37,458 nucleotides of DNA from a virus (lineage: Duplodnaviria; Heunggongvirae; Uroviricota; Caudoviricetes). Positions within the stretch are counted from its first letter, which is position 1. Each line of letters begins with the position of its first letter. The notes under the pieces are model-generated. The model had not been told where the DNA came from. It saw only the letters and a list, made by a program, of their open reading frames with translations, and did not search any database. Below, in pieces: positions 5,208 to 12,246 of the stretch. Both the position numbers and the translations under genes were made by a program. The stretch lies in the IMG/VR virus record IMGVR_UViG_2541047873_000006; one strand, 5' to 3'.

Positions 5208-5597
5208 ATGATTGACGCTCATGACTTCACAAGATGGGTGCGCACACAGGACACCCGTCTGGCTCCCGTTCTTCAGGGATTATTTGATCTCTACATCCGT
5301 GGTCGTGACAACAGAGCACGCACCACAAAACCAGAGAATGCAGACACCCTTTATTTCACAGTAGACGACTGCTACCGCGTGGACTTCACACCACACGGGC
5401 TGGCGTTGCACTGCCTGACACCACACGGAGAATCACTGCTGGCGTATTACGACTCCCCGGCCTCCGTATTTGCGGCAATGCTGGCGCATCGCACTGCTGG
5501 CGGGTGTGCCTCGCTGAGTGAATACACCGCTGAATTTAACCGCCTTTCTGCCCTCTTCTCGCAGGAGTGGCAGCGCGTGACGGGATACCAGCCATGA
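5208..5597 (+). CDS. Hypothetical protein (129 aa) immediately upstream of A
   Basis: Track ORF; its TGA stop overlaps the ATG of gene A (ATGA). Confidence 0.55.
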   Translation: MIDAHDFTRWVRTQDTRLAPVLQGLFDLYIRGRDNRARTTKPENADTLYFTVDDCYRVDFTPHGLALHCLTPHGESLLAYYDSPASVFAAMLAHRTAGGCASLSEYTAEFNRLSALFSQEWQRVTGYQP

Positions 5598-8434
5598 GTG
5601 AGTTTGCATGGAGCTGGAATGAACCACGGCCAGCCATTGATCCGGCCAGATTTACGGAGCACAGGCAGGAAACTGAAACCGACCTGCAACGCGCCATCCG
5701 TTACTACCTTGAGGCGGACAAAAAGGCCCGGGAAGAACAGGAAGCGAAGGAGGAAGCCTTTTTCGCACAATCCGCCATGGGTAAAAAACTCATGGCATCC
5801 CTTGAGGAAGCCGGACAGCGTGAAAAGCTGGCACAGAGCATCATCAGTAAGCGCCGGGCAACAGAACAAGACCCGGTGGCCCGTGCCTTTGCCACACTGA
5901 AGGCGCTTCCCGTTTATCTGCGAGAACCTCTGAGCCGCCACCTCTCTTTCCTGCGCAAGAAGCAGGAAGCCGATCGTCAGAAAGGCAAAAAGAGCTGGCA
6001 GGCGGAACGCTATGCACGCGGAACCCTGCGCAAAATATTCGAACGTCTGGACCGCACCGACAGCCGCTGGCTGACACCGGGTTATCGCTCCCTTGCCGGA
6101 CGCGAACGCCTGGACGATTTGCTTTACCTGCCGCAGCTCAACAAACACCAGATACAGACGCTGGCCACCATGACGGCGGCGATGTTCAGCAGCACCTTCG
6201 AAAAACTCTGCGATGGCTTTGGCGCGACTGATGGCGAACTGACCATGGATGTAACGCTGAAGGCGTATCAGATGCTGGCCCGCATGGCGTTACACCTGCA
6301 CGCCATGCCTCCACATTATGACGCACTGACAACAGACAAAGACCGGAGGAACGAACCGGACACGGAGCTGCTGCCGGGCGCAATCCTTCGCCTGACCTGT
6401 GCGGAATGGTGGAAACGCAAACTGTGGCTGTTACGTTGCGAGTGGAGAGAAGAACAACTCCGCGCCGCCTGTCTGGTTTCCAGAAAAACATCACCCTATC
6501 TGAGCCAGGACGCGTTAAGCGAGTTTCGCGCACAGCGCGAGAAAACACGCGATTTCCTGAAAAGTTTTATGCTGGAAAACGAAGACGGGTTCACGATTGA
6601 TCTCGAAACAGTGTATTACGCGGGAGTAAGTAACCCGGTTCACCGTAAGGCAGAAATGATGGCCACCATGAAGGGGCTGGAACTTCTGGCCGAAGCCCGT
6701 GGCGACAAAGCGGTGTTTCTGACTGTCACCTGCCCGTCAAAATACCACGCCACAACAGAGAACGGTCATCCGAATCCCAAATGGAACGGGGCCACCATGC
6801 GCGACTCCAGCGATTACCTGGTTAACACGTTTTTTGCGGCGGTCCGCAAGAAACTGAACCGCGACGGCCTGCGCTGGTATGGCATCCGCACGGTGGAGCC
6901 TCACCATGACGGCACCGTGCACTGGCATATGATGGTCTTTGCTCATCCGGAAGAAATCGACACCATTGTGTCCCACACCCGCGATATTGCCATTCAGGAA
7001 GATCGTCACGAGCTGGGTGATGATATTACCCCACGCTTTAAGGCGGAGTACGTCGACGGCTCAAAAGGTACGCCAACCAGCTACATCGCCACCTACATCG
7101 GAAAGAACCTGGACAGCCGCGCCGTGGATGGCATCGACCCGAAAACGGGCAAGCCACGCGTTGACCACGAAACCGGAAAATCAATGGCCGAGAGCGTGGA
7201 ACGCGCCATCGGCTGGGCGCGCCTTCACCGTGTCCGCCAGTTCCAGTTCTTTGGTATCCCCTCCCGTCAGGTGTGGCGTGAACTCCGCCGCCTTGCCAGC
7301 CAGATGGCACGCAACCCGGAAGGCCCGCAACGGCTGAAGGATGACGCAATGGATGCGGTACTCGCTGCCGCTGATGCCGGATGTTTTGCCACCTACATAG
7401 AGAAACAGGGCGGCGTACTTGTTCCACGCAAAGACTACCTGATTCGCACCGCCTACGACCTCGCAGATGAGCTGAACGATTACGGCGAACAGAGTGTACA
7501 GATTTACGGGATCTGGTCGCCGCTCATCGGGGAATCCTCCCGTGTGTGCACGCATCCGGATAACTGGAAGCTGGTAAGACGTAAACCGGAAGTGGAAGAC
7601 AGCGCCCGCGAAAATGGTTTTGACCTTCAGGGCGGCCCTGCCGCCCCTTGGACTCGTGGCAATAACTGTCCCCGTGTACAGGAAACGGACAACAACGGGA
7701 CAGAACAGCCGGAAGAACGGCCAGCACCGTGGCCGCAGCTTCCTGACGGCATTGAAGTGAACGAATGGATGCGCTCACTGAAACGGCACGAACGCCGGGC
7801 GCTGATGCGTTCGCTTCGTGACAAACAGGCAAAAAACAGCAGTGATGAAATGCAGAGCTGGACACAGAGCCGCAAACAGCAGCGGCCTTTGCCTGATAAC
7901 CACGAATTACTCGCTAGAGAATGGCGGGAGTCTGCTGAATCTCTCGGCCTGCATATCGGTGAACAACAAATGCAGCACCTGTTACGGGGCGGCAGTCTGT
8001 ACGTTGACGGCAGCATCATTGCACCGCAGGGATTTGAAATTGTACGCAAACCGGATACCCGCCCGGACAGCCGAATCACGCAGCTCTGGCAACGCCTGAG
8101 CCGTAATCACGGCGTAAGCAGCACGGAGATCCGCCATAACCCGGTCGCCAGCTATCTGGAACAGCTGGGGGCATCAGACCCTGAAGCCGCCGCACGCCTG
8201 GCATCCACACTTCAGCAGGACCAGAACACCATGAAAACACCCGTTACCGTGCTTTCTGACATGCTGCGCGCCATCCGCGACGCAGAGCACGCACAGAGAA
8301 TCAGTGAAACCACTGAACGCGCCCGCCGCAAAGCAGACCTGCTGCGGGGTGGCCTGACCAGTGGAAACAAAAAACAGACAGAAACGGGATTCACAAATCC
8401 CGTAAATGAGCAAAAAACGCGCCGCGATATATGA
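5594..8434 (+). CDS. A: Rolling-circle replication initiator / replication endonuclease (P2 gpA-like), about 946 aa
   Basis: Track ORF 5567..8434 (GTG); ATG 5594 preferred because of the ATGA coupling. HUH motif in EPHHDGTVHWHMMVF and catalytic tyrosine motif in YIATYIGKN; the first 760 aa are collinear with the recalled P2 A protein. Confidence 0.9.
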   Translation: MSEFAWSWNEPRPAIDPARFTEHRQETETDLQRAIRYYLEADKKAREEQEAKEEAFFAQSAMGKKLMASLEEAGQREKLAQSIISKRRATEQDPVARAFATLKALPVYLREPLSRHLSFLRKKQEADRQKGKKSWQAERYARGTLRKIFERLDRTDSRWLTPGYRSLAGRERLDDLLYLPQLNKHQIQTLATMTAAMFSSTFEKLCDGFGATDGELTMDVTLKAYQMLARMALHLHAMPPHYDALTTDKDRRNEPDTELLPGAILRLTCAEWWKRKLWLLRCEWREEQLRAACLVSRKTSPYLSQDALSEFRAQREKTRDFLKSFMLENEDGFTIDLETVYYAGVSNPVHRKAEMMATMKGLELLAEARGDKAVFLTVTCPSKYHATTENGHPNPKWNGATMRDSSDYLVNTFFAAVRKKLNRDGLRWYGIRTVEPHHDGTVHWHMMVFAHPEEIDTIVSHTRDIAIQEDRHELGDDITPRFKAEYVDGSKGTPTSYIATYIGKNLDSRAVDGIDPKTGKPRVDHETGKSMAESVERAIGWARLHRVRQFQFFGIPSRQVWRELRRLASQMARNPEGPQRLKDDAMDAVLAAADAGCFATYIEKQGGVLVPRKDYLIRTAYDLADELNDYGEQSVQIYGIWSPLIGESSRVCTHPDNWKLVRRKPEVEDSARENGFDLQGGPAAPWTRGNNCPRVQETDNNGTEQPEERPAPWPQLPDGIEVNEWMRSLKRHERRALMRSLRDKQAKNSSDEMQSWTQSRKQQRPLPDNHELLAREWRESAESLGLHIGEQQMQHLLRGGSLYVDGSIIAPQGFEIVRKPDTRPDSRITQLWQRLSRNHGVSSTEIRHNPVASYLEQLGASDPEAAARLASTLQQDQNTMKTPVTVLSDMLRAIRDAEHAQRISETTERARRKADLLRGGLTSGNKKQTETGFTNPVNEQKTRRDI

Positions 8435-8480
8435 AGCGCGCACAAAACAGGCAAAAACGGGATTTCAGAATCCCGTAAAC
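8371..8480. repeat. Two about 38-bp direct repeats, each with an ACGGGATT-N4-AATCCCGT palindrome; candidate parC-like centromere / ParR operator
   Basis: Copies at about 8371-8408 (inside the last codons of A) and about 8443-8480 (30 bp upstream of parM) differ at about 5 positions; located where parC lies in R1-type parMRC loci. Confidence 0.4.
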
Positions 8481-8510
8481 GATTAATTAATCAACATAAG
8501 GAAAAGCGAC

Positions 8511-9470
8511 ATGAAAATTTGTATCGACGACGGCTCCACCAACATCAAGCTGGCATGGACTGAGAACGGCGAACGCCGCAACGCCATCAGCCCGAACAGC
8601 TTCAAGTCGGAATGGTCTGCGCCGTTCGGTGGCACGCAGCCCGCGAACTACATGCTTGATGGCGTGCGCTATGGTTTTGATCCGGTCAGCGATCGCTTTG
8701 TCCAGACGACCGACACGCAATACCAGTACAGCGATGTGAATGTCATTGCCATTCATCACGCGCTGGTCAAATCAGGCATCACGCCACAGGAGGTGGATGT
8801 GGTTGTCACCCTGCCACTGAGCGAGTATTTCGACACAAACGCACAGCCGGACATGGCCAACATCAACCGCAAAAAAGCGAACGTTATGCGCCCGGTGGAG
8901 TACCAGAACGGCGAAGCATTCACTATCCGTAACGTGCGGGTTATGCCTGAATCCATTCCGGCTGGCTTTAAGGCACTGGCTGACATGAGTCCGTTTGAAT
9001 CCCTGCTGATTGTGGATTTAGGCGGAACCACGCTGGATGTGGCAAAGGTTCAGGGGCAACTGGCAGGTATCAGCCAGGTGTTTTGCGATCCACACGTAGG
9101 CGTTTCCCTGATGGCCGATGCCGTGCTGTCGGTGATGGCCGCTAACGGTATGCGTACCAGTCACCACATCGCCAATACCATTATCGAACATCGCCATGAT
9201 GAAGCCTGGTTGCGCCAACACATCCACAATGACGCGCATTACGCCAGCCTGATGGCGGTTATTCGTGAAAAGGAAGAAACACTGAAACAACGCGTGATCC
9301 GCGCGCTGGCGGGTTTTTCGGGTTACGGACGGGTGATGGTTGTCGGTGGCGGGGCGGAGATTGTGGCACCCGCTATCCGCGAAGCCTGCGGAGTTAATGC
9401 GACTTTCATCGCGGACGGGGTGCCACAGTTTGCTCTGGTTAATGGGCTGTACGCAATGGACAAGGAGTAA
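8511..9470 (+). CDS. parM: Actin-like segregation ATPase ParM/StbA family, 319 aa
   Basis: MKICIDDGSTNIKLAW...ISPNSFK...YQYSDVNV...MPESIPAG...LIVDLGGTTLDV...VMVVGGGAE is collinear with the recalled plasmid R1 ParM (MLVFIDDGSTNIKLQW...); AAGGA Shine-Dalgarno. Confidence 0.9.
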   Translation: MKICIDDGSTNIKLAWTENGERRNAISPNSFKSEWSAPFGGTQPANYMLDGVRYGFDPVSDRFVQTTDTQYQYSDVNVIAIHHALVKSGITPQEVDVVVTLPLSEYFDTNAQPDMANINRKKANVMRPVEYQNGEAFTIRNVRVMPESIPAGFKALADMSPFESLLIVDLGGTTLDVAKVQGQLAGISQVFCDPHVGVSLMADAVLSVMAANGMRTSHHIANTIIEHRHDEAWLRQHIHNDAHYASLMAVIREKEETLKQRVIRALAGFSGYGRVMVVGGGAEIVAPAIREACGVNATFIADGVPQFALVNGLYAMDKE

Positions 9471-9474
9471 ACCA

Positions 9475-9789
9475 ATGACGACACCAACCAGACGGATAAG
9501 TTTCTATCTGAAGCCCGCCGCCGTCAATAGTGAACGGAAGGCGTGTAATTACCTCGACAGCCTGCCAGCCTCTGAACGCAGCCGCGCGCAACGCGCGGCC
9601 TTTCTGGCCGGGCTGGCACTCATAAAACGCGATCCTGCATTTGCCTATTGGTTGGCCGAATGGCCGGAAGAAGGAGCTGCGCCAGCAAAGAATAATATTC
9701 AGAGTAAATATGCCAGCACACCTGCCACCGGAAGCAATCACAGCACTAGCGAGATAAGAAAGAACATTCAGTCATTTTTCCCGGAGTGA
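9475..9789 (+). CDS. parR: ParR/StbB-like ribbon-helix-helix centromere-binding adaptor, 104 aa
   Basis: ATG 9475 with CAAGGAG 7 nt upstream, in frame with track ORF 9340..9789; ISFYLKPAAVNSERKACNYLDSLPASERSRAQRAAFLAGLAL matches the recalled R1 ParR N-terminus (IAFKLNPDVNQTDKIVCDTLDSIPQGERSRLNRAALTAGLAL). Confidence 0.8.
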   Translation: MTTPTRRISFYLKPAAVNSERKACNYLDSLPASERSRAQRAAFLAGLALIKRDPAFAYWLAEWPEEGAAPAKNNIQSKYASTPATGSNHSTSEIRKNIQSFFPE

Positions 9790-9808
9790 AAACAGGAGAG
9801 GTGCATCT

Positions 9809-10240
9809 ATGGCAACTATTCCCAAAAAATGGTTACAACGCAAAATCGCAGACCTTGAATCGTGTCGTGAAGACATCCCATTTGGCCTTGATGAAAACGA
9901 TCACAATATGTTAATCGCACTGAAAATCGCACTCACATCGCTGGAAGCGAAACCTGTTGCATGGACTGATGATGAGGAACTGCGTGATGTCAAGCAGTAT
10001 GGTTTCGGTGAGATATTTCAGTGTCCGCCAGATAAATACGCGGATCCGCGCCGTGTTATCCCTATGTATCAAGAGCCGCCAGCGCCAGCAGTACCAGATG
10101 GGCTGGTTAGAGCGGTGCGTTTCTATGAACAGGTTAAGCGTGAAAATCCGCCAGCCGAAACCGGAGCATGGAAAGACGCTGTTGACTGGGTGCTCAAAGA
10201 GGCCTGCCAAGTTGTAAACACTGGCATCAAAGGAGACTGA
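9809..10240 (+). CDS. Hypothetical protein (143 aa), first of three small cargo ORFs after parR
   Basis: Track ORF with AGGAGA Shine-Dalgarno; carries an IAL-x-SLEA-x-PVAW motif shared with the ORF at 10448..10708. Confidence 0.5.
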   Translation: MATIPKKWLQRKIADLESCREDIPFGLDENDHNMLIALKIALTSLEAKPVAWTDDEELRDVKQYGFGEIFQCPPDKYADPRRVIPMYQEPPAPAVPDGLVRAVRFYEQVKRENPPAETGAWKDAVDWVLKEACQVVNTGIKGD

Positions 10241-10241
10241 T

Positions 10242-10451
10242 ATGGCTATTGCCGCAAGTTACACCATGCATCTCTATTGTGATTGCCTCCAGTGTACAGA
10301 TGGCAAATATAAGTCGCCAGACTTCGGTGAGTATATAGGTACGTCATGGGCTGGCTGTGCAAAAGAGGCGCGCAAGGATGGCTGGCGAATAAGCAAAGAC
10401 AAAACGCGTGCTTTTGCGCCCGGGCATAAAGTTTTGAGGATTAACAAATGA
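10242..10451 (+). CDS. Hypothetical Cys-rich small protein (69 aa)
   Basis: Track ORF; Cys cluster CDCLQC plus a distal Cys suggests a possible metal-binding knuckle. Confidence 0.4.
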   Translation: MAIAASYTMHLYCDCLQCTDGKYKSPDFGEYIGTSWAGCAKEARKDGWRISKDKTRAFAPGHKVLRINK

Positions 10452-10708
10452 CCACTTTAACCGACAAAGAACTGATTAAAGAAATCAAAGAGCGCATAGG
10501 CAGCCTAGACGTGAGAGACAATATTGAACGCCGTGCTTATGAAATTGCTCTGGTATCGCTGGAAGCAGAGCCAGTAGCATGGATGCATGTAAATAACGGC
10601 ATCGGAATACCAGCAATAACAAGGAGTAAAGAGGTTGCAGAGAGTTGGTTATCAAAAGGCTGGTATGTCCAACCCTTACATCTAGCCCAGCCTGCATCAA
10701 AGCTATAG
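10448..10708 (+). CDS. Hypothetical protein (86 aa), paralogous motif with the 9809 ORF
   Basis: Track ORF with ATGA overlap; the shared motif is also visible in DNA (TCGCTGGAAGC in both genes). Confidence 0.5.
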   Translation: MTTLTDKELIKEIKERIGSLDVRDNIERRAYEIALVSLEAEPVAWMHVNNGIGIPAITRSKEVAESWLSKGWYVQPLHLAQPASKL

Positions 10709-10717
10709 AAATGAGCC

Positions 10718-10746
10718 AAAACGCCCTCTTCCAGGGCGTTTATTTC
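10718..10746 (+). terminator. Intrinsic terminator ending the A/parMR accessory operon
   Basis: AACGCCCT-CTTCC-AGGGCGTT stem-loop followed by TATTTC, 10 nt after the stop at 10708. Confidence 0.6.
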
Positions 10747-11199
10747 AATGCACAATAGTGCACAAATTTGCACAATTTTTTTGAACGACTTTTTGCCCTT
10801 CCGGCCCGCGGGGCGACTGGATCCGTCAAGGATCCGTGCGTGCACAAAAAAACGCGCTTTTTCTGCGCGCAGGTGACGGGGGAACAGCCCGCGTTTCAGG
10901 GGGTAAATAGCATTCCCTGAACGATGTCGCAGAGATACAACAGAATGGCTGTATTTCTCACGCTGAGCGTGAAAAAGACGTGAGGGCTTTTGATTTGATG
11001 GGGTGAAAGGTAAGGCCGTCAAAATCGCACTGAGACGGCGAGAACATGCAGCCAACGCGGTGGGATTGCGTAAGAGTCTGGCTGTCGATGATGGCAATAA
11101 GCAGGAAAGCGTCGTGAAATTATCTGATTGATACAGGAGCTGGAGAGTCGGGGCATAAATTTTTTATGCCCCGGCGAAGCAGCAGACAAGCGAAGCGCG
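10747..11199. other. Non-coding region adjacent to portal 3' end: candidate cos / packaging region
   Basis: Position corresponds to cos in a P2-type prophage map; GC-rich stretch GGTGACGGGGGAACAGCCC at about 10872-10890 loosely resembles the recalled P2 cohesive end; three TGCACAA copies at exact 10-bp phasing (10749, 10759, 10769). Confidence 0.3.
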
Positions 11200-12246
11200 T
11201 CAGGATGTGGGCTGGGTGTCCAGCAGTGCATAAGGGTTAAAGCGGATCACCTCTTCGCCAAGCCAGTCATTGATGTGCTTCATGGCCTCCATGACGGGCA
11301 TCAGTTCGTTAATTGCGTAAACCCGCGCGGCCTTCTCCACATCACCAAACGCACTTTTTTCGCCCGGCATCGCCCCCATCAGTTGCGGCGGAACGCGGTG
11401 CGCAGCCAGCACATCATCACGGGATGCCGCCTTGACATTCATGAACTCATCCTTTGCAGTGATCTGCTGGAACGGCAAAATTTGCACACCTTCTTTGCCC
11501 CCGTTGGGCGCATGAATGAGCACGTTTTTAAACGCACCACCACCACGTGCACCCTGTAACGTTTCTTTCAGGGAGTCCATGCTTTCGCGGTTTACCTGCG
11601 CTGCACCGATGTAGATGATGCACCCGGCGTGGGATCCGTTGTCGTAATACAGTTTTCTGAACATGTCCGCCGAATGAGACAGGCTGGCCGAGAGTAATGC
11701 GCCGAGATATTCCGGCATGCCGTAGATTTCCTGGTTAATATCCGGATTCATCAGGTGGCACACTTTGCCAGGGCGAAACTGGAACGCGTCCTTGCCATCC
11801 TGCACATACCACCATGATTCAAGATCGCTTCCGCGTCGCATGTATTTCGCCAGGGCGTGCCGTAATTTAAGCGGTTCACCGAGCATATTGCTTCGAAGCT
11901 CAAGGAATGCGTTACCGAACACAAACCAGTCCAGCGCCAGCGCCGAGAAATCCTGCCGGGAAAGCAGCGGGTGCGGAATATAGCAACCGAGCAATACATT
12001 GCGCTTAAAGTAAAGCGCAGACTGATGCCAGGACGTTTGCCGGGCAGCTCTTGCCAGACCGTACCAGTCCACCGGGGTTTCATACCACCGCCCGTTATCA
12101 GCACAGTACATATTGTCCAGCAGGTCATGCCCGGTCAGGCGATAAGGACCATCAAATGTGAATGCGCTGAGCGATGATTCTTTCCTGAGCGCATCAGCGA
12201 GATCAATGCGTGAACTCATGCGCACTTTTTTATTTTTTCTGCTCAT
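11200..12246 (-). CDS. Q: Portal protein (P2 gpQ-like), 348 aa
   Basis: Track ORF; size and position as P2 Q; ATG overlaps the TGA of upstream terminase P (ATGA coupling). Confidence 0.85.
   Translation of the reverse strand: MSRKNKKVRMSSRIDLADALRKESSLSAFTFDGPYRLTGHDLLDNMYCADNGRWYETPVDWYGLARAARQTSWHQSALYFKRNVLLGCYIPHPLLSRQDFSALALDWFVFGNAFLELRSNMLGEPLKLRHALAKYMRRGSDLESWWYVQDGKDAFQFRPGKVCHLMNPDINQEIYGMPEYLGALLSASLSHSADMFRKLYYDNGSHAGCIIYIGAAQVNRESMDSLKETLQGARGGGAFKNVLIHAPNGGKEGVQILPFQQITAKDEFMNVKAASRDDVLAAHRVPPQLMGAMPGEKSAFGDVEKAARVYAINELMPVMEAMKHINDWLGEEVIRFNPYALLDTQPTS

Follow-up and report, generated by a model that had tools for sequence, protein, structure and literature searches.

A P2-like prophage carries, behind its parMR partition locus, small genes akin to the early accessory cassettes of lambdoid phages

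The window analysed here, a stretch of 37,458 nucleotides (nt) from IMG/VR virus record IMGVR_UViG_2541047873_000006, is a P2-like prophage of the P88 type (Xuanwuvirus), in which three small open reading frames (ORFs) follow the partition genes parM and parR in the slot bounded by the replication gene (A) and the portal gene (Q). Judged from their sequences, these ORFs belong to the variable gene set that follows ea22 in lambdoid and P22-like phages, and we consider it probable that they are real coding accessory cassettes from the lambdoid ea, or exo-xis, region, specifying dispensable, soluble, early binding proteins and not a dedicated system. Lambdoid early accessory cassettes are already known; those described here are a further instance, captured in a P2 hotspot. 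An original prediction, made from the DNA alone, had placed ORFs of 143, 69 and 86 residues after parR, and both their lengths and their coordinates (9809-10240, 10242-10451 and 10448-10708) proved exact. The ORFs and the features discussed with them are:

9787-9789: stop codon of parR
9794-9801, plus strand: ribosome-binding site of ORF1, AGGAGAGG, 7 nt before the ATG at 9809 (read from the sequence)
9809-10240, plus strand: ORF1, 143 residues, isoelectric point (pI) 4.9; PHROG 660, E 1.2e-44 (residues 1-142)
9938-9964, plus strand: first motif copy, SLEAKPVAW, where helix 2 of the N-terminal hairpin ends
10079-10099, plus strand: proline linker PAPAVPD, start of the ORF1 C-terminal module
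10095-10692, plus strand: block 92.5% identical, gap-free, to the ea region of a P22-like prophage of Escherichia coli LR-28 (blastn)
10230-10235: ribosome-binding site of ORF2, AAGGAG, inside the last ORF1 codons, 6 nt before the ATG
10242-10451, plus strand: ORF2, 69 residues, pI 9.2; PHROG 926, E 1.5e-36 (residues 1-69)
10448-10708, plus strand: ORF3, 86 residues, pI 6.1; PHROG 5117, E 1.5e-25 (residues 1-83)
10556-10582, plus strand: second motif copy, SLEAEPVAW
10682-10692, plus strand: right recombination junction, where lambdoid homology ends (10692) and P88 backbone homology resumes (10682) (blastn)
10720-10746, plus strand: terminator-like hairpin 1, AACGCCCT-CTTCC-AGGGCGTT followed by TATTTC (RNA fold -22.5 kcal/mol, z -3.47)
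10758-10783, plus strand: terminator-like hairpin 2, GTGCACAAATTTGCAC (10758-10773) followed by AATTTTTTTG (consensus scan)

Relationship to the lambdoid early region

Lambdoid phages have a conserved gene block that ends with ea22 and is followed by a variable gene set, in a region transcribed early from pL, in lambda as well (PMC8614690). Close homologues of the three ORFs occupy this setting, between the recombination genes and xis or int, in phage ev017, in the LR-28 prophage and in Stx phage Min27. The block at 10095-10692 takes in the C-terminal module of ORF1, ORF2 and residues 1-82 of ORF3; the LR-28 prophage has here, between its recombination genes and integrase, genes for proteins of 134 residues, 69 residues (identical to ORF2) and 244 residues (a DUF551 protein), with the same junctions. 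The exo-to-xis interval of ev017 is 81-88% identical to the window, and in Min27 ORF2 stands in a canonical exo-xis region, flanked by ea22-like and DUF551 genes. The exo-xis variable set as published (PMC8614690, PMC10834534) agrees with the three-ORF block in DNA (81-92% identity), gene order and coupling junctions, and like it consists of small, mosaic, co-directional genes with no assigned function; the difference lies in position, between exo and xis in the one case and after parMR of a P2-like phage in the other, and in the conserved lambdoid orf60a-orf63-orf61-orf73-ea22 block, which does not accompany the ORFs here.

A sample of ten contexts of the exact ORF2 protein, drawn from a contig collection, gave a similar picture: nine were early regions of lambdoid or P22-like prophages, and the other had the same P88-like arrangement as the window. 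The layout running from recombination genes to xis/int was clear in six of the ten. In all ten the upstream gene ends 1 nt before ORF2, and in nine a downstream gene overlaps it by ATGA, no adjacent downstream gene having been called in the remaining context. These junctions are constant across very different partners, which upstream include Ead_Ea22 proteins (205-436 residues) and unrelated small proteins, and downstream DUF551 proteins, dATP/dGTP pyrophosphohydrolase with or without DUF551, a 321-residue protein and the 86-residue form. The idea that every gene upstream of ORF2 ends in the C-terminal module of ORF1 proved wrong, as a 230-residue Ead_Ea22 protein and proteins of 62 residues do not.

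Assortment of the cassettes and points of exchange

Among 5426 complete E. coli genomes, 1743 contain parts of the block, 62 the junction of parR with ORF1, 36 the junction of ORF3 with the phage backbone, and only four the whole block. Relatives hold other combinations. In the O104:H4 strain 2009EL-2071, ORF1 is followed by an unrelated 87-residue gene; an O145 strain carries a ClpX-type zinc-finger gene, a gp20-like gene, an XF1762-family gene, that same 87-residue gene and ORF3; and CREC-591 carries the ClpX-type gene, a gp20-like gene, ORF2 and a truncated ORF3. Because the junctions occur in 62, 36 and 4 genomes and relatives show these other combinations, the cassettes are, on the genomes compared, independently assorting units and no fixed three-gene system.

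Otherwise unrelated cassettes (ORF1, XF1762-family, Ea22-like and some ORF2 variants) have a common ending, ...KGE or ...KGD before the stop codon (often IKGE or IKGD). In the window this KGD-stop junction (10226-10244) reads AAAGGAGACTGA and encloses the ribosome-binding site used by the gene that follows; stretches L025 (1602-2093) and L022 (2386-3716) have such a junction too. Since homology reappears between otherwise unrelated sequences at this junction, at the SLEAxPVAW motif and at the proline linker, it is likely that recombination shuffles the cassettes there, and these elements provide a concrete example of how such shuffling may occur.

A shared N-terminal module and the mosaic structure of ORF1

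The peptide SLEA-x-PVAW, reported in the original prediction as common to ORF1 and ORF3, is real: BLASTP aligns residues 26-52 of ORF1 with residues 19-45 of ORF3 (15/27 identical, E 9e-6). The further claim that it is visible as identical DNA holds equally, the 11-mer TCGCTGGAAGC occurring exactly at 9938 and 10556 (two copies in the window versus 0.01 expected by chance), and a 42-nt direct repeat of 76% identity is found at 9924-9965 and 10542-10583. Six-frame translation of the window gave no further copy of the peptide, and the N-terminal 50-107 residues of both proteins match PHROGs 660, 5117, 60 and 3323. Because of the alignment, the DNA repeat with its 11-mer, the lack of any other copy and the common PHROGs, we take the motif to represent a true homologous N-terminal module of ORF1 and ORF3.

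ORF1 is a mosaic of three pieces, each of which alignment finds in other combinations: an N-terminal helical hairpin (residues 1-52) ending in SLEAKPVAW, a variable middle (residues 53-90), and, after the PAPAVPD linker, a C-terminal helical hairpin module (residues 91-143). A like proline linker stands before the DUF551 domain in relatives of ORF3 and in the Klebsiella phage neighbour of an ORF2 homologue. The AlphaFold2 model of ORF1 consists of helical hairpins (predicted local distance difference test score, pLDDT, 70.6), with no long coiled coil predicted. Comparison of the C-terminal module with its LR-28 and CREC-591 copies gave ratios of nonsynonymous to synonymous substitution rates (dN/dS) of 0.09-0.16.

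In their modular build with swappable C-terminal domains, ORF1 and ORF3 recall the Ead/Ea22-like proteins (PF13935), some of which precede ORF2 in lambdoid contexts; at least one of these, gp39 of ev017, ends in the ORF1 C-terminal module (84% nucleotide identity). The central coiled-coil profile of that family is, however, unmatched by either protein in Pfam at E up to 1, and a direct relationship to Ea22 was rejected, BLASTP against lambda Ea22 giving E 2.8 and 7.0 for ORF1 and ORF3; the Ea22-like protein of Min27 likewise showed no significant BLASTP similarity to them.

In phage P88 the homologue of ORF1 is gp20 (49% identity overall), which lies in the same slot on the same strand and has the N-terminal hairpin type and the C-terminal module in common with ORF1 but not its middle piece (a 46-residue gap). 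P88 shows a 444-bp in-frame deletion matching positions 10238-10681 of the window, with ORF2 and most of ORF3 gone, and in gp20 an ORF1-like protein is joined in frame to the final eight residues of ORF3 (stretch L002, 3280-3618). A ClpX-type zinc-finger gene accompanies gp20 in P88-like prophages and is absent from this window.

Truncation of ORF3

ORF3 consists of the first 82 residues of a DUF551-type protein, which comprise the hairpin at its N terminus and its middle segment. Over 95% of its length it shows about 85% identity to the start of DUF551 proteins of 149-150 residues, agreeing with roughly their first 82 residues; members of the DUF551 family (PF04448) include YfdS of E. coli CPS-53 and the Ea22 V2 variant of Stx phages. 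The alignment runs to ...VQPLHLAQP, after which ORF3 ends, at the proline linker, with ASKL and a stop, whereas its relatives continue with PVTPDGWISCSERMP..., the DUF551 domain. That domain is absent from ORF3, which gives no PF04448 match in Pfam, and the last four codons and the stop come from the P2-like backbone junction. With the end of lambdoid homology at 10692 and the return of P88 homology at 10682, the point of truncation is, as these alignments place it, the recombination junction itself.

Residues 1-81 of ORF3 compared with a full-length DUF551 gene gave a dN/dS of 0.19; between two truncated copies the value was ~0.9, from only four differences, too few to judge selection. Intact 86-residue copies at 94-99% identity occur on hundreds of contigs, and the ORF3 counterpart in CREC-591 is annotated as a pseudogene by the NCBI pipeline. 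Because several relatives join the first 82 residues to other C-terminal segments in place of the DUF551 domain, this unit may fold and act alone. Of the DUF551 proteins, YfdS has been linked to oxidative-stress tolerance (PMC4776307).

A widespread small protein encoded by ORF2

ORF2 bears the conserved pattern LYCDCxxC...ARxxGWxIS...APxH and its family, which forms 394 clusters at 50% identity, is made up almost wholly of free-standing proteins of 60-80 residues with the pattern MIxxGYxLxLYCDCxxC...ARxxGWxIS.D...C.APxH. It had been described as rich in cysteine; cysteines are present, if in modest number (4 in 69 residues). In family alignments C13 is invariant, C15, C18 and H62 are invariant among closer relatives, and remoter relatives often have CPxC instead of APxH. 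This cysteine/histidine pattern makes ORF2 probably a zinc-binding protein. Its AlphaFold2 model is a small beta-beta-alpha-beta-beta unit (pLDDT 78). A relationship to lambda Ea8.5, a zinc-finger/homeodomain hybrid, was tested by similarity and rejected. Searched against the PDB, the family profile gave one marginal local match (E 0.02), to helix 1 of a plant ZF-HD homeodomain (1wh7) around ...AERLGWRIQK; we do not take it as homology, and it is probably due to chance, though both are small zinc-associated proteins.

The exact ORF2 protein occurs in 11,822 blocks of the contig collection, and the family extends to Ackermannviridae (Kuttervirus, Dickeya phages and Klebsiella phage Magnus) and to siphophages of Klebsiella and E. 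coli, carriers that we take to be virulent phages. Klebsiella phage VLCpiS13d has an ORF2 homologue (45% identity) whose stop is overlapped by the next gene, the product of which has a hairpin-like N-terminus and a PAPVVPDGL linker. Against the CREC-591 copy the dN/dS of ORF2 is 0.10, 11 of the 16 changes being synonymous. Because values of 0.09-0.19 were obtained for the ORF1 C-terminal module, ORF2 and residues 1-81 of ORF3, we regard the ORFs as real genes. If a phenotype were found for ORF2 or the SLEAxPVAW hairpin module, thousands of prophage genes would gain an annotation.

Gene junctions and transcription signals

The stops and starts overlap or abut, as had been noted in advance. ORF1 ends with TGA at 10238-10240 and the ATG of ORF2 follows at 10242, leaving a gap of 1 nt, and ORF2 and ORF3 share ATGA at 10448-10451; the ribosome-binding site of ORF3 is a GAGG ahead of it. 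The expected closure of the array at a terminator is borne out by the two terminator-like hairpins that follow, the first with a G+C-rich stem of 8 bp (10720-10740), the second within backbone conserved among P88-like phages, where homology resumes at 10735-10749. A scan of positions 8300-11300 revealed no sigma-70-like promoter, and between gene A, parM, parR and the ORFs there was neither a promoter-like site nor a convincing plus-strand terminator. It is because of this, and of the tight spacing, that the proposed co-transcription of the ORFs with parMR is plausible.

The host prophage and the gpA-gpQ slot

A prophage of E. coli EcPF14 shows 100% identity to the window over the region studied, and phage P88 shares 96-97% identity with it in the parMR segment. 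The ORFs are flanked by genes for gpA, ParM, ParR, the portal protein and terminase:

5567-8434: gene A (Phage_GPA, E 1.9e-131)
8511-9470, plus strand: parM, actin-like partition ATPase of 319 residues (Pfam StbA_N, E 1.8e-82; ParM_N, E 2.6e-68; PHROG 691, 'partition protein')
9475-9789, plus strand: parR, partition adaptor of 104 residues (Pfam Plasmid_stab_B, E 2.6e-26)
11200-12246, minus strand: portal gene (annotation of the identical EcPF14 locus)

The portal and terminase genes lie on the strand opposite to the ORFs, beyond about 450 bp conserved in P88-like phages. The three ORFs, with the replication gene A on one side and the portal gene Q on the other, are located in the gpA-gpQ slot, a hotspot already described, where roughly one in four P2-like phages of E. 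coli has a partition system (PMC9122126); such loci were entered simply as 'hypothetical' in the hotspot census of Rousset et al., and a search of the literature on Xuanwuvirus turned up no account of parMR or the genes carried with it. That the ORFs are cargo of this slot, as originally proposed, is upheld by comparison with P88, CREC-591, an ST131 phage, 569R5, 520873, Shae_phiSM, O104:H4 and O145. Backbone identity to such relatives is 94-97% up to 9620 or 9671 and again from 10682-10749, and the cargo in between differs (blastn), so that the content of the slot after parR varies between near-identical relatives. Both left-hand limits fall inside parR: homology to P88, CREC-591 and Shae_phiSM stops at 9620, and that to the ST131 phage, 569R5 and 520873 runs on to 9671 (blastn). 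On the right, P88 matches the window again from 10682 onward, the CREC-591 prophage from 10543 and the other relatives from 10735-10749. P88-like phages have at least two versions of the 3' part of parR (9620-9789).

In the same slot, the ST131 phage has opposite-strand cargo comprising a 280-residue protein and a DUF4760 protein (stretch L006, 1974-3353), and Citrobacter phage Shae_phiSM an opposite-strand putative membrane protein (stretch L009, 1978-2496). Such cargo resembles autonomous morons or defence candidates more closely than the three ORFs do.

Searches for families and functions

The original prediction recognised no known family for the ORFs. This stands for Pfam, NCBIfam and PADLOC and has to be amended for PHROG, in which families 660, 926 and 5117, of unassigned function, match. 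Pfam and NCBIfam scans of the three ORFs returned only chance-level matches of ORF3 to DUF2639 and to valine-tRNA ligase, the latter probably explaining the name 'valyl-tRNA synthetase' given to some ORF3 relatives in public records, and disclosed no nuclease, nucleoside triphosphatase (NTPase), sensor or other effector-like domain. PADLOC-DB 2.0 gave no family for ORF1, ORF2, ORF3, ParM or ParR at E up to 1. Sequence searches of the PDB with single proteins and family profiles found nothing for ORF1 or ORF3, and Foldseek against viral models retrieved only uncharacterised small phage proteins, some from actinobacterial phages. None of the three proteins has a hydrophobic or membrane segment.

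Interpretation and alternative explanations

In the course of events that we favour, a sample of small genes from the early-left region of a lambdoid or P22-like phage would have recombined into the gpA-gpQ slot at the far end of the A-parM-parR unit, with ORF3, a DUF551-type gene, losing the DUF551 domain where it joins the P2 backbone. The encoded proteins, soluble and without enzymatic domains, would act by binding host or phage proteins, the N-terminal hairpin probably serving for self-association; they may tune host physiology or the balance between lysis and lysogeny, as reported exo-xis proteins do, and would be dispensable for phage growth. We prefer this interpretation because of the lambdoid origin of the DNA, the small, soluble and non-enzymatic nature of the products, and what has been reported for the genes around them in exo-xis regions: the Ea22 proteins form oligomers, have a mosaic build and are said to promote lysogeny (PMC10834534), and deletion of the whole exo-xis region of Phi24B left lytic growth unchanged and raised lysogenisation (PMC10789677).

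Several points tell against this interpretation. The proposed binding mechanism is drawn by analogy with the neighbouring exo-xis genes, and ORF1 and ORF3 are not detectably similar by BLASTP to lambda Ea22 itself. The scan of 8300-11300 located no promoter from which the operon would be expressed in a lysogen. The slot is a proven defence hotspot, many genes of unassigned function in such hotspots prove to be defensive, and six of eight loci of this kind from P4 satellites protected against phages (preprint 10.64898/2026.02.27.708500). The ORF2 homologue of the Klebsiella phage again precedes a hairpin-and-linker protein, which hints at a functional link that we treat as unproven.

The strongest rival is that at least one cassette acts in counter-defence, being made early in the lytic cycle and inhibiting an immune system of the host, perhaps through binding to a defence protein or mimicry of one; we give this a minor but appreciable chance. 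The early-left region also holds known inhibitors of host nucleases, with Gam, anti-RecBCD, methyltransferase and dATP/dGTP pyrophosphohydrolase genes as neighbours, the cassettes turn over rapidly, and the products are small and soluble, ORF1 being acidic; the wide spread of the ORF2 family, into Ackermannviridae and siphophages of Klebsiella and E. coli, would reflect such a use. Against this, ORF3 is without its presumed effector domain, and a literature search produced no link of DUF551 or of the three genes to anti-defence. A related and rather doubtful proposal is that an upstream cassette, the zinc-type ORF2 protein and a hairpin-linker-effector protein (the effector being DUF551 or dATP/dGTP pyrophosphohydrolase) form a coupled early phage module, such as a counter-defence or host-takeover complex. 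The trio is conserved between lambdoid prophages and a siphophage of Klebsiella (45% identity, with neighbours of the same architecture), and, if the module is real, its place behind parMR in the P2 hotspot could allow expression from the prophage.

It is unlikely, we believe, that the block, or at least ORF3, is passenger DNA, a functionless, recent and harmless remnant of recombination between a lambdoid and a P2-like prophage. ORF3 does end 16 nt past the break in homology without its DUF551 domain, its CREC-591 counterpart is the annotated pseudogene mentioned above, the ratio of ~0.9 comes from the two truncated copies with their four changes, and P88, having deleted ORF2 and ORF3, is still listed as a phage genome. 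Yet the hundreds of contigs with intact copies, the purifying selection on ORF2 and the ORF1 C-terminal module, the intact ribosome-binding sites and coupling junctions, and the joining of the 82-residue unit to non-DUF551 segments, so that it may act alone, all speak against it.

The proposal of an undescribed three-gene defence or anti-defence operon, with which the original prediction had closed, was not supported by these comparisons: the cassettes assort separately, ORF3 is truncated, P88 does without ORF2 and ORF3, the DNA comes from a lambdoid early-left region, the ORF2 family occurs in presumably virulent phages, and PADLOC families, effector domains and membrane features were not found. 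Prophage-encoded defence in particular, in which the operon would be expressed in the lysogen and block superinfecting phages as P2 old and tin do at the same locus, seems to us quite improbable. Its sole support is location in the gpA-gpQ hotspot (PMC9122126), where relatives carry differing cargo, some of it on the opposite strand as is typical of morons, and where P2 and P4 genes of unassigned function are often defensive (preprint 10.64898/2026.02.27.708500). The ORFs share with old, tin and other defence cargo of this slot (PMC9122126) the locus and its high turnover, but no catalogued defence protein resembles them in PADLOC, and they are co-directional with the early operon instead of forming an autonomous unit: they lie on the strand of parMR, with no promoter-like site of their own in the scan, and lack nuclease, NTPase, membrane and sensor domains. 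The same genes, moreover, occur separately, one of them here as a truncation, and stand in lambdoid early lytic operons, and the ORF2 family is found in groups that we assume to be virulent, where defence of the host would be senseless. The P2-like defence hotspot evidently also collects ordinary early accessory cassettes of lambda-like phages, and for this reason location in the hotspot says little by itself about defence.

A role of the three proteins as accessories of partition, serving ParM and ParR as regulators or segregation adaptors, is suggested by their adjacency to parMR and apparent co-transcription with it, but can be set aside as most improbable, since other P88-like phages with 94-97% identical parMR carry unrelated cargo and the same cassettes are common in phages without parMR.

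Other features of the region

The replication protein (5567-8434) has 955 residues in the list for the window and 946 in public annotation; the Phage_GPA profile spans only its residues 194-518, and for the long C-terminal part no family gave a significant match. ParM and ParR are two of the three components of a type II (ParMR) partition locus, the third being a centromere (parC). Upstream of parM, two 42-nt direct repeats, 81% identical, lie at 8368-8409, in the 3' end of gene A, and at 8441-8482, in the spacer between A and parM, and each holds a 20-bp palindrome, ACGGGATT-N4-AATCCCGT. These two palindromes are a candidate centromere; they could be ParR sites (parC) or the operator of the partition operon.

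A minus-strand ORF of 186 residues with a TTG start (10537-11097) covers the terminators and the conserved non-coding stretch and runs antisense to ORF3; it looks spurious. An Rfam search of 8300-11300 returned only a sub-threshold match to gyrA RNA at 11141-11194 (22 bits versus a gathering score of 45). This match overlaps a perfect 11-bp inverted repeat, CGGGGCATAAA-TTT-TTTATGCCCCG (11149-11173), which lies just downstream of the portal stop, in a stretch conserved among P88-like phages, and is probably a terminator.

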